Part shown: piece after piece, positions 24,200-24,511 of the stretch
Position numbering within the stretch: the stretch's first letter is position 1
Layout of the letters: the number at the start of each line of letters is the position of its first letter
Assembly: GCA_963832835.1 (NCBI GenBank)
Contig: CAWHVD010000001.1
Span: 1,619,201-1,683,200 of the forward strand
Reading direction: 5' to 3'
DNA: 64,000 nucleotides
Source of the DNA: an uncultured Chlamydiales bacterium
Lineage (GTDB): Bacteria > Chlamydiota > Chlamydiia > Chlamydiales > JAAKFR01
Position numbers and translations under genes: made by a program
The notes under the pieces: generated by a model
Databases searched by the model: none
What the model was told of the DNA's origin: nothing
The model's input: the letters and a program-made list of their open reading frames with translations, nothing else

Positions 24200-24511
24200 T
24201 TATTTCTTCCCGATTTGATCTATAAACTTACCAAGGACAAAACCACCGAAAAGTTTCAGCGCTTCTTCACCTACACTGGCTCCTGCGGCGATGCTTTCCA
24301 ATTGCTCTTCAGTCATGCTTGCCGGTTTTTGCGGCAAAACAAGAAATATTTCTTTTTCTGTGTTCTCACAAACAGTCACTTTTGTACCATGAGGTATCTC
24401 AATCCCTAATGCATGCAAGGCATCACTTGGATTGGTCAAGAGCTGCTGCTTAAATTTAGGATCGCTCCACGCCTTTGCAATCACTTTAGAACATATTTCA
24501 TGATTTTCCAT
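24200..24511 (-). CDS. NHLP-type (nitrile hydratase-like leader peptide) RiPP/bacteriocin precursor candidate
   Basis: The leader VIAKAWSDPKFKQQLLTNPSDALHALGIEIPHGTKVTVCENTEKEIFLVLPQKP...EEQLESIAAGA follows the NHLP consensus (IIAKAW.D..FK..LL.NP..AL...G..(L/I)P.G..V.V.E.T....LVLP...ELSDEELE.VAGG). Strong RBS AGGAGGG 5 nt upstream of the ATG. The 25-aa tail is SVGEEALKLFGGFVLGKFIDQIGKK. Confidence 0.75.
   Translation of the reverse strand: MENHEICSKVIAKAWSDPKFKQQLLTNPSDALHALGIEIPHGTKVTVCENTEKEIFLVLPQKPASMTEEQLESIAAGASVGEEALKLFGGFVLGKFIDQIGKK

Follow-up and report, generated by a model that had tools for sequence, protein, structure and literature searches.

A small gene at positions 24200-24511, on the minus strand, of a 64,000-nucleotide stretch of DNA from an uncultured Chlamydiales bacterium (assembly GCA_963832835.1, contig CAWHVD010000001.1, positions 1,619,201 to 1,683,200; the whole stretch is referred to below as the window) encodes a divergent and isolated addition to the known nitrile-hydratase-like leader peptide (NHLP) family of peptide precursors. 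The encoded protein consists of a folded leader resembling the alpha chain of nitrile hydratase (NHase; residues 1-77), a double-glycine-type motif and a hypervariable tail of 26 amino acids (aa). We tentatively read it as a functional, stand-alone precursor, the linear peptide of which would be exported by machinery encoded elsewhere in the genome.

The open reading frame (ORF), present in the ORF list of the window, comprises 103 aa plus a stop codon and is identical to the sequence quoted in the earlier note that this analysis followed up, which had not given the strand. A stop codon lies three codons 5' of the ATG, which leaves no ambiguity about the start. The Shine-Dalgarno sequence AGGAGGG, described previously as a strong ribosome-binding site (RBS), can be read at 24516-24522 (minus strand), separated from the ATG by a 4-nt spacer. 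The in-frame codon log-likelihood of +0.277 per codon is to be compared with 0.225 +/- 0.05 for the long genes of the window, which served as the reference; the other two sense frames yielded -0.59 and -0.84 per codon, and all five other frames were negative. The gene is AT-richer than its neighbours, with a GC content of 41.3% (46.8 +/- 2.3% in the long genes) and a GC content at third codon positions (GC3) of 36.5% (46.2 +/- 4.0%). Comparison of the leader with that of a close homologue, P0002, showed that it has evolved under purifying selection, with a ratio of non-synonymous to synonymous substitution rates (dN/dS) of ~0.13; dS is saturated, and the value reflects long-term history and not the present state of the gene. 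ORF 24200-24511 is a genuine NHLP gene, with a strong RBS and normal coding statistics.

Assignment to the NHLP family, proposed earlier from the sequence pattern together with a profile search that could check it, was borne out by that search. The hidden Markov model (HMM) TIGR03793 (leader_NHLP) scored 86.8 bits against the ORF product (cut-off 50.9; E = 6.6e-25), and residues 3-77 were aligned to model positions 2-77 of 77. The Pfam family NHase_alpha was matched with 59.9 bits, the best-scoring stretch covering profile positions 41-87 of 184; the metal-binding motif of NHase, C-[ST]-L-C-S-C, is absent, and the only two cysteines among the 103 residues are C7 and C48. Sequence matches in the PDB were nitrile hydratase alpha chains and the NHLP precursors 8tb1 and 9cjx. 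An AlphaFold2 (AF2) model built with 68 homologues reached predicted local distance difference test (pLDDT) values of 85-97 over residues 1-60, and its best Foldseek match was 8tb1, a proteusin precursor solved by nuclear magnetic resonance, with NHase alpha chains and Os1348 next in rank; the match to 6lk7 was weak (E = 1.3). Other families were not supported: the Os1348 family NF038399 scored 23.9 bits, below its cut-off of 40, the models TIGR03795 and TIGR04351 for thiazole/oxazole-modified microcins (TOMMs) likewise remained below their cut-offs for this ORF, and the lactobin A/cerein 7B bacteriocin family gave no NCBIfam match at E <= 10. The HMM alignment, the AF2 and Foldseek results and the dN/dS ratio together support a leader region of residues 1-77 (24281-24511, minus strand) that ends in ...EEQLESIAAG. 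In the family alignment, the double-glycine column corresponds to A76-G77, at the end of the model and directly before A78. This site, with I at -4, L at -7 and M at -12, fits the hydrophobic -4/-7/-12 consensus of double-glycine motifs (PMC3140520).

Because the double-glycine column is A76-G77, the family-consistent core is 26 aa long and begins at A78. This predicted core, residues 78-103 (ASVGEEALKLFGGFVLGKFIDQIGKK; 24203-24280, minus strand), starts one residue before the 25-mer proposed in the earlier note; cleavage may follow either G77 or A78. The sequence following A78, SVGEEALKLFGGFVLGKFIDQIGKK, contains no Cys and one Ser and has an internal Gly-Gly at G89-G90, all as described before; it also has no Thr, and the suggestion that lanthionine or azole chemistry is unlikely is well taken, such chemistry being implausible for a core with neither Cys nor Thr. 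A GxxxG motif is formed by G90-FVL-G94. The residues that precede G89-G90 are a poor match to the double-glycine consensus (A at -7, S at -12), which makes a second processing site there speculation.

The description of the core as cationic and amphipathic is overstated, as the tail is moderately amphipathic and weakly cationic: the 25-mer carries a net charge of +1, and its last 13 aa one of +2. Taken as a single helix, the 25-mer has a hydrophobic moment (muH) of 0.07; its two halves have muH values of 0.41 and 0.52, which were equalled by 5% and 9% of shuffles, respectively. The C-terminal 13-mer FVLGKFIDQIGKK (24203-24241, minus strand; muH 0.52, charge +2) is the most amphipathic stretch of the protein, and the last 11 aa (muH 0.74) form its highest-scoring 11-aa window. 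In the AF2 model, the tail has pLDDT values below 50 and a short helix at residues 94-100, which suggests a flexible segment that is not packed on the leader, as expected for a core peptide. A helix, a Gly-Gly hinge and a second helix are a fair description of the tail peptide, and its sequence lends weak support to the idea that the 13-mer may be membrane-active. Comparison of the core with that of P0002 and with four other cores revealed no significant similarity (shuffle p = 0.87 against P0002), and the only match among PDB sequences, to ribosomal protein L10, was at chance level.

The NHLP gene is convergent with a gene for a UbiD-family decarboxylase (22374-24182), from which it is separated by a 17-nt gap. 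On its own strand, it is preceded on the 5' side by a palindromic repeat, by orf96 (24740-25030) and by a PI3/PI4-kinase-like gene; farther out are genes for a PLD-family protein, a type III glutamine synthetase, DapB and DapA, ribosomal protein L28 and an SthA-like oxidoreductase. In the scan of the window, 40 ORFs were searched with Pfam and nine of these also with NCBIfam, and the remaining ~12 long ORFs were called housekeeping from their translations (RuvB, Dcd, ClpB, GGDEF-EAL, DapA/B, FolD, ParA, SmpB, DnaN and RecF). The scan of the 64 kb found no YcaO, SagB, LanM or peptide-modifying radical-SAM enzyme, and the sole radical-SAM protein in the window is RimO (550 bits). The ABC systems of the window are LolCDE, an importer-like ATPase and a NodT/DevC/DevA-like exporter of the MacB type. 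This agrees with the earlier statement that the window holds no C39 exporter, cyclodehydratase, LanM or radical-SAM maturase. A profile search in all six frames revealed no second NHLP ORF in the window, which also contains no second small double-glycine ORF; no partner peptide or immunity gene was found near the NHLP gene. The gene is correctly called an orphan within the window, since neither partner genes nor a second NHLP ORF were found in the 64 kb.

The MacB-type exporter (15-2891, plus strand) comprises a NodT-like outer-membrane factor, a DevC-like permease and a DevA-like ATPase, and is a tripartite system cut by the start of the window, with the periplasmic adaptor presumably encoded upstream. 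It was considered as a specific partner of the NHLP gene and rejected: it lies 22 kb away, is of the MacB type without a C39 domain and scored below the cut-offs, and no link to the NHLP gene was found.

The neighbouring UbiD protein has named homologues only in Chlamydiales, Chlamydiia, Parachlamydiales or Chlamydiae metagenome-assembled genomes (MAGs), so the window is chlamydial, which supports the setting assumed before. For a comparison of synteny, the region around UbiD was taken from three close relatives, L071, L072 and L073. In L071 (UbiD 90% identical), the order FIST, Transglut-TPR, SthA, L28 and UbiD is kept and two coiled-coil proteins are encoded after UbiD (7786-8931). The corresponding position in L072 (UbiD 87% identical) is taken by an 85-aa ORF and a glycosyltransferase gene (2184-3578). 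L073 (UbiD 79% identical) keeps the downstream block (an 86-aa ORF, PI3/4-kinase, PLD, DapB and DapA) and has a gene for a 311-aa membrane protein (7770-8705) in place of the NHLP gene and repeat of the window. The junction after UbiD (24183-24739 in the window) is a variable spot among these closely related chlamydiae, and the NHLP gene is an accessory gene at this variable junction.

Word-indexed protein searches, which returned three homologues, and exhaustive HMMER searches identified P0002 as the only close homologue, with a leader ~63-65% identical to that of the window gene. P0002 is encoded on a 5.6-kb contig (L001) between genes for a TrxB-like protein and an unknown 271-aa protein on one side and a PFK gene on the other; it is not syntenic with the window gene, and no maturase was found on its contig. 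The contig probably derives from the relative represented by L072, because both come from the same sequencing run and have a similar GC content. The tail of P0002 also has an internal Gly-Gly followed by a 13-aa amphipathic end with a charge of +2 (muH 0.76, p = 0.001). Homology of the two tails was considered and not accepted: their sequences are not significantly similar (p = 0.87), and the architecture, which alone is shared, may be a coincidence. The earlier note had held that orthologues without a conserved C-terminal tail would speak against its reading, and in P0002 the tail is indeed not conserved. A scan of metagenomes for orthologues retrieved none with a leader identity above 48%, the other matches being NHase alpha genes or distant NHLPs. 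A plasmid search gave no close relative, and there is accordingly no evidence for plasmid carriage of the gene.

The palindromic repeat upstream of the NHLP gene (~168 nt, 24539-24708) resembles miniature inverted-repeat transposable elements (MITEs) or repetitive extragenic palindromic (REP) sequences. It ends 15 nt 5' of the RBS and occupies the place of a -35 box plus spacer; between repeat and RBS there is only a degenerate GATATATAG. The gene for P0002 has a perfect TATAAT box 12 nt 5' of its GGAGG. The repeat may have weakened, replaced or insulated the promoter of the NHLP gene. The arms of the repeat are 70 nt long and 79% complementary, a second copy is 96% identical, and as RNA it would form a single long hairpin (-83.8 kcal/mol, z = -11.9); it has no match in Rfam. 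Eight copies are present in the 64-kb window, compared with 0.03 expected, at approximately 2020-2186, 2889-3055, 8567-8733, 13959-14124, 24539-24708, 30716-30883, 50564-50730 and 59791-59957. Their terminal inverted repeats contain CCATTTCCAGAAAATAAAG, the orientation of the inner region varies among copies, and most copies lie between ORFs; two bracket the DevA-like ATPase gene, one of them overlapping its nominal 5' end. If this density applies to the whole genome, a few hundred copies are to be expected in it. The presence of the repeat explains why the 10-kb Logan contig L004, assembled from short reads, breaks inside it, 54 nt 5' of the NHLP gene. The only predicted 'terminator' lies within the NHLP ORF and is at chance level.

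The family to which the gene belongs is large: an exhaustive search among representatives of 50%-identity clusters yielded 3690 matches at E <= 0.001. A Cys-free core, which had been thought unusual, is the majority state, being found in 68 of the 118 retrieved single-domain relatives with a locatable cleavage motif. Cys-free cores with a Lys-rich end (for example, ...KATKKLTKK) occur in the Nostoc precursors P0233, P0236, P0237 and P0240, one of which NCBI names a class IIb bacteriocin. The gene for another Cys-free relative, P0088, directly adjoins that of a radical SAM/SPASM enzyme. Many of the best leader matches (P0004-P0062 and others) are proteins of 140-400 aa with two to four tandem NHLP domains, which scored above most single-domain precursors; P0004, for instance, is 230 aa long and has three NHLP repeats.

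Precedents were also found within the phylum. The chlamydial MAG GCA_964588495.1 carries, on contig CAZPPS010000002.1 (L005, ~9992-17144), an NHLP precursor, P0153, in a TOMM-type locus. Its leader is 54-55% identical to that of the window gene and its core is DFGDCTSDQMRGK; at a distance of 3.3 kb are genes for a SagD-type YcaO protein that includes a leader-binding domain (TIGR03604, 271 bits versus a cut-off of 219) and for a SagB dehydrogenase. An Hc2 histone gene lies beside them, and the contig also has the Transglut/SthA/L28/UbiD block. The radical-SAM gene directly 5' of P0153 was considered as a maturase gene and rejected, as it encodes HemW (275 bits, above cut-off). In a further chlamydial MAG (L044), an NHLP-like gene lies between the genes for isocitrate dehydrogenase and an E2 acyltransferase. 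TIGR03793 is presumably among the profiles that trigger the RiPP-like rule of antiSMASH (RiPP, ribosomally synthesised and post-translationally modified peptide), in which case the window gene would be flagged by routine mining. Clusters called 'RiPP-like' by antiSMASH have been reported as widespread in Chlamydiae and common in several families (Dharamshi et al., PMC9666466), and a proteusin cluster has been predicted in Endochlamydia hydrae (2026, PMC13229535). These two reports and the TOMM-type locus contradict the impression, given in the earlier note, that RiPP precursors had not been described in Chlamydiae, and claims of rarity for the window gene do not hold.

Set against known systems, the window gene shares with the NHLP family (TIGR03793; PMC2887384) the full-length leader match, the NHase-alpha-like fold without the metal site, the double-glycine-type motif and the short hypervariable core. 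It differs in lacking, within 64 kb, a TOMM system, LanM or the three-gene nitrile hydratase leader microcin (NHLM) cassette (C39 ABC transporter, second ABC transporter and HlyD), in having a core without Cys or Thr and in belonging to an obligate intracellular chlamydia. Co-occurrence with NHLM or maturase genes is a contextual property and stands outside the HMM definition of TIGR03793. The cyanobacterial double-glycine 'bacteriocin' precursors (Wang, Fewer & Sivonen 2011, PMC3140520), such as those of Nostoc mentioned above, likewise combine an NHLP leader with a Cys-free hydrophobic core, which has a Lys-rich end; C39 ABC transporters are presumed to cleave and export them, and they would undergo little or no modification. 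In contrast to the window gene, the cyanobacterial NHLP precursors sit around clusters with C39 ABC transporters and HlyD (PMC3140520), and their cores in Nostoc exceed that of the window gene in length and in positive charge (+4 in P0237), with no significant core similarity (p = 0.87).

Proteusins share the leader family of the window gene, and the precursor 8tb1 is both its best structural match and a significant sequence match. They are NHLP-led RiPPs, among them those derived from the polytheonamide and landornamide precursors, the cores of which need no Cys and are much longer than that of the window gene; their hallmarks are a radical-SAM epimerase or other tailoring enzymes, none of which is encoded in the window. 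TOMM precursors, including that of the L005 locus, which has in common with the window the phylum, the Transglut/SthA/L28/UbiD block and a related leader, differ by Cys/Ser/Thr-containing cores (no Cys, no Thr and one Ser in the window core) and by YcaO and SagB, which lie 3.3 kb from P0153. Class IIb bacteriocins (lactobin A/cerein 7B) resemble the window gene in the logic of the double-glycine leader, in the small unmodified helical peptide, which in the window gene is a prediction, and in the GxxxG motif; unlike it, they have a paired peptide, an immunity gene and a transporter, none of which is found near the window gene. Classical double-glycine bacteriocin leaders average ~24 aa (PMC2887384), compared with ~77 aa here.

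The reading that we prefer, although with less than even confidence, is that of a functional stand-alone double-glycine NHLP precursor that is exported by a C39 ABC exporter encoded elsewhere and yields a linear peptide. The leader would be recognised by a peptidase-containing ABC transporter (PCAT) with a C39 peptidase domain, and the precursor would be cut after G77 or A78 and then exported. A linear peptide of 25 or 26 aa would be released, with a helix, a Gly-Gly hinge and a second helix; it would be unmodified and similar to class II bacteriocins, or would bear only chemistry that is independent of Cys and Thr, and its most plausible activity would be to bind or perturb a competitor's membrane or that of the host. 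In favour of this reading are the family membership, the coding signal and RBS, the fit of the cleavage motif to the consensus, the flexible tail, the Cys-free, Lys-rich cores of the cyanobacterial precursors, the known distance of some NHLP precursors from their partner genes and the tail architecture shared with P0002. Several observations weigh against it. The ORF scan revealed no Peptidase_C39 ABC transporter (PCAT), HlyD or maturase in the 64-kb window. A consensus scan found no sigma-70-like promoter upstream on the strand of the gene, where the MITE takes the -35 position. The gene is absent after UbiD in L071, L072 and L073, with no remnant detectable by tblastn. Statistical support for an amphipathic tail is not strong (p ~0.09), and the net charge of the tail is only +1 to +2. 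An exhaustive HMMER search of 1.84 billion representative proteins gave no protein besides the query that aligns past query residue 96, and the tail has no conserved counterpart in other proteins. The last point is tempered by the facts that hypervariable cores are normal for the NHLP family and that P0002 is not syntenic.

Some of these observations would also be expected if the gene were an orphaned relic, that is, a leftover or recently transferred precursor without partners in the genome, poorly expressed or silent and with no active product. This is the less likely but still serious alternative suggested by the accessory, non-syntenic state of the gene and its traceless absence from the three related loci, by its low GC and GC3 relative to the long genes, by the end of the MITE 15 nt from the RBS with no promoter-like site where the L001 homologue retains a perfect TATAAT, by the partner genes not found within 64 kb and by the chlamydial NHLP-like genes in L001 and L044, which are likewise flanked by housekeeping genes. 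The intact ORF, strong RBS and good codon statistics argue for a working gene instead, as does the leader dN/dS of 0.13, within the bounds that saturation sets on it as a record of long-term history. Isolation is moreover frequent in this family, since NHLP precursors can be encoded far from the genes for modification and export, and some are found in species that have no TOMM or Lan enzymes (Haft et al., PMC2887384). Distant partners of another kind would be required if the precursor were a substrate of proteusin-type enzymes that act independently of Cys and Thr, by radical-SAM epimerisation, C- or N-methylation or Lys acylation, and gave rise to a modified RiPP. We regard this as unlikely: the radical-SAM complement of the window is limited to RimO and no such enzyme is encoded there, the core is shorter than the proteusin cores known to us, such as that of polytheonamide, and the sequence indicates no specific chemistry. 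It nevertheless draws on the structural match to 8tb1, on the radical SAM/SPASM neighbour of the Cys-free P0088, on the proteusin cluster predicted in another chlamydia (PMC13229535) and on the four Lys and many aliphatic residues of the core, which could serve as targets.

Two further explanations deny that the ORF encodes a precursor. According to one, the product would be a small folded NHase-alpha-like intracellular protein, for example a binding partner, with a flexible tail of 26 aa. The confidently folded leader (pLDDT 85-97) would suit such a role; many of the top HMMER matches, with their two to four tandem NHLP domains, do not look like simple precursors, and Os1348, which belongs to the clan as well, is a stable dimer (PMC7726476). 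Yet the match to the precursor model is full-length and above its cut-off while that to the Os1348 family is not (23.9 versus 40 bits), the double-glycine motif is kept with the right spacing upstream, and a conserved leader joined to a hypervariable tail is the pattern that marks a precursor, so that this explanation appears very improbable. The other, a spurious ORF, could appeal to the short length, to the mere three homologues returned by the word-indexed search and to the repeat-rich intergenic surroundings, and is effectively refuted by the HMM E-value of 6.6e-25, the 3690 family matches, the frame-specific codon signal and the dN/dS of 0.13; we give it next to no weight. Returning to the stand-alone exported precursor, a broader extension can be imagined in which some environmental chlamydiae have kept NHLP genes after the loss of the classical maturases, or without ever having had these, and use them to deliver unmodified helix-hinge-helix peptides against the membranes of host vacuoles or competitors, with two Gly-Gly sites or export by a route other than a PCAT; we consider this improbable. 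It would be equally a long shot that such peptides, with a Gly-Gly followed by a 13-aa amphipathic tail of charge +2 as in the window gene and P0002, constitute a leader-dependent, modification-free class of effectors in an obligate intracellular phylum, although this is what they would be if the idea were true.

Other features of the window were recorded in passing. The orf96 product (24740-25030, minus strand) has no match in Pfam or NCBIfam and is 69% identical to a protein of L073, the gene of which there also adjoins a PI3/PI4-kinase-like gene. The L073 homologue begins at Met13 of orf96, so the true start of orf96 is probably an internal ATG, which would remove most of its 65-nt overlap with the kinase-like gene. 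Eukaryote-like signalling domains, which may mark effectors, are present in the PI3/PI4-kinase-like protein (24966-25943, minus strand), in the PLD-family protein (25985-27085, plus strand) and in a membrane-anchored dual-specificity phosphatase (60428-61477, plus strand). Inc-type pairs of hydrophobic segments occur in several proteins without Pfam matches (for example, 59166-59753 and 54472-55869). Genes for tRNA-Ile(GAT) and tRNA-Ala(TGC) lie side by side at 62010-62166 (minus strand), in an arrangement like that of an rRNA spacer; no rRNA was detected in the window.

For the present, the window gene mainly adds a further divergent and isolated representative to a family that already counts thousands. 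It corrects, together with the other chlamydial examples, the impression that chlamydiae are without NHLP genes, and at least one full TOMM-type locus is present among them. Provided that the peptide is produced and leaves the cell, it would offer a simple candidate, accessible by synthesis, for an antimicrobial or host-acting agent of intracellular bacterial origin, and the gene would provide a concrete case of RiPP-type precursors encoded away from their partner genes.

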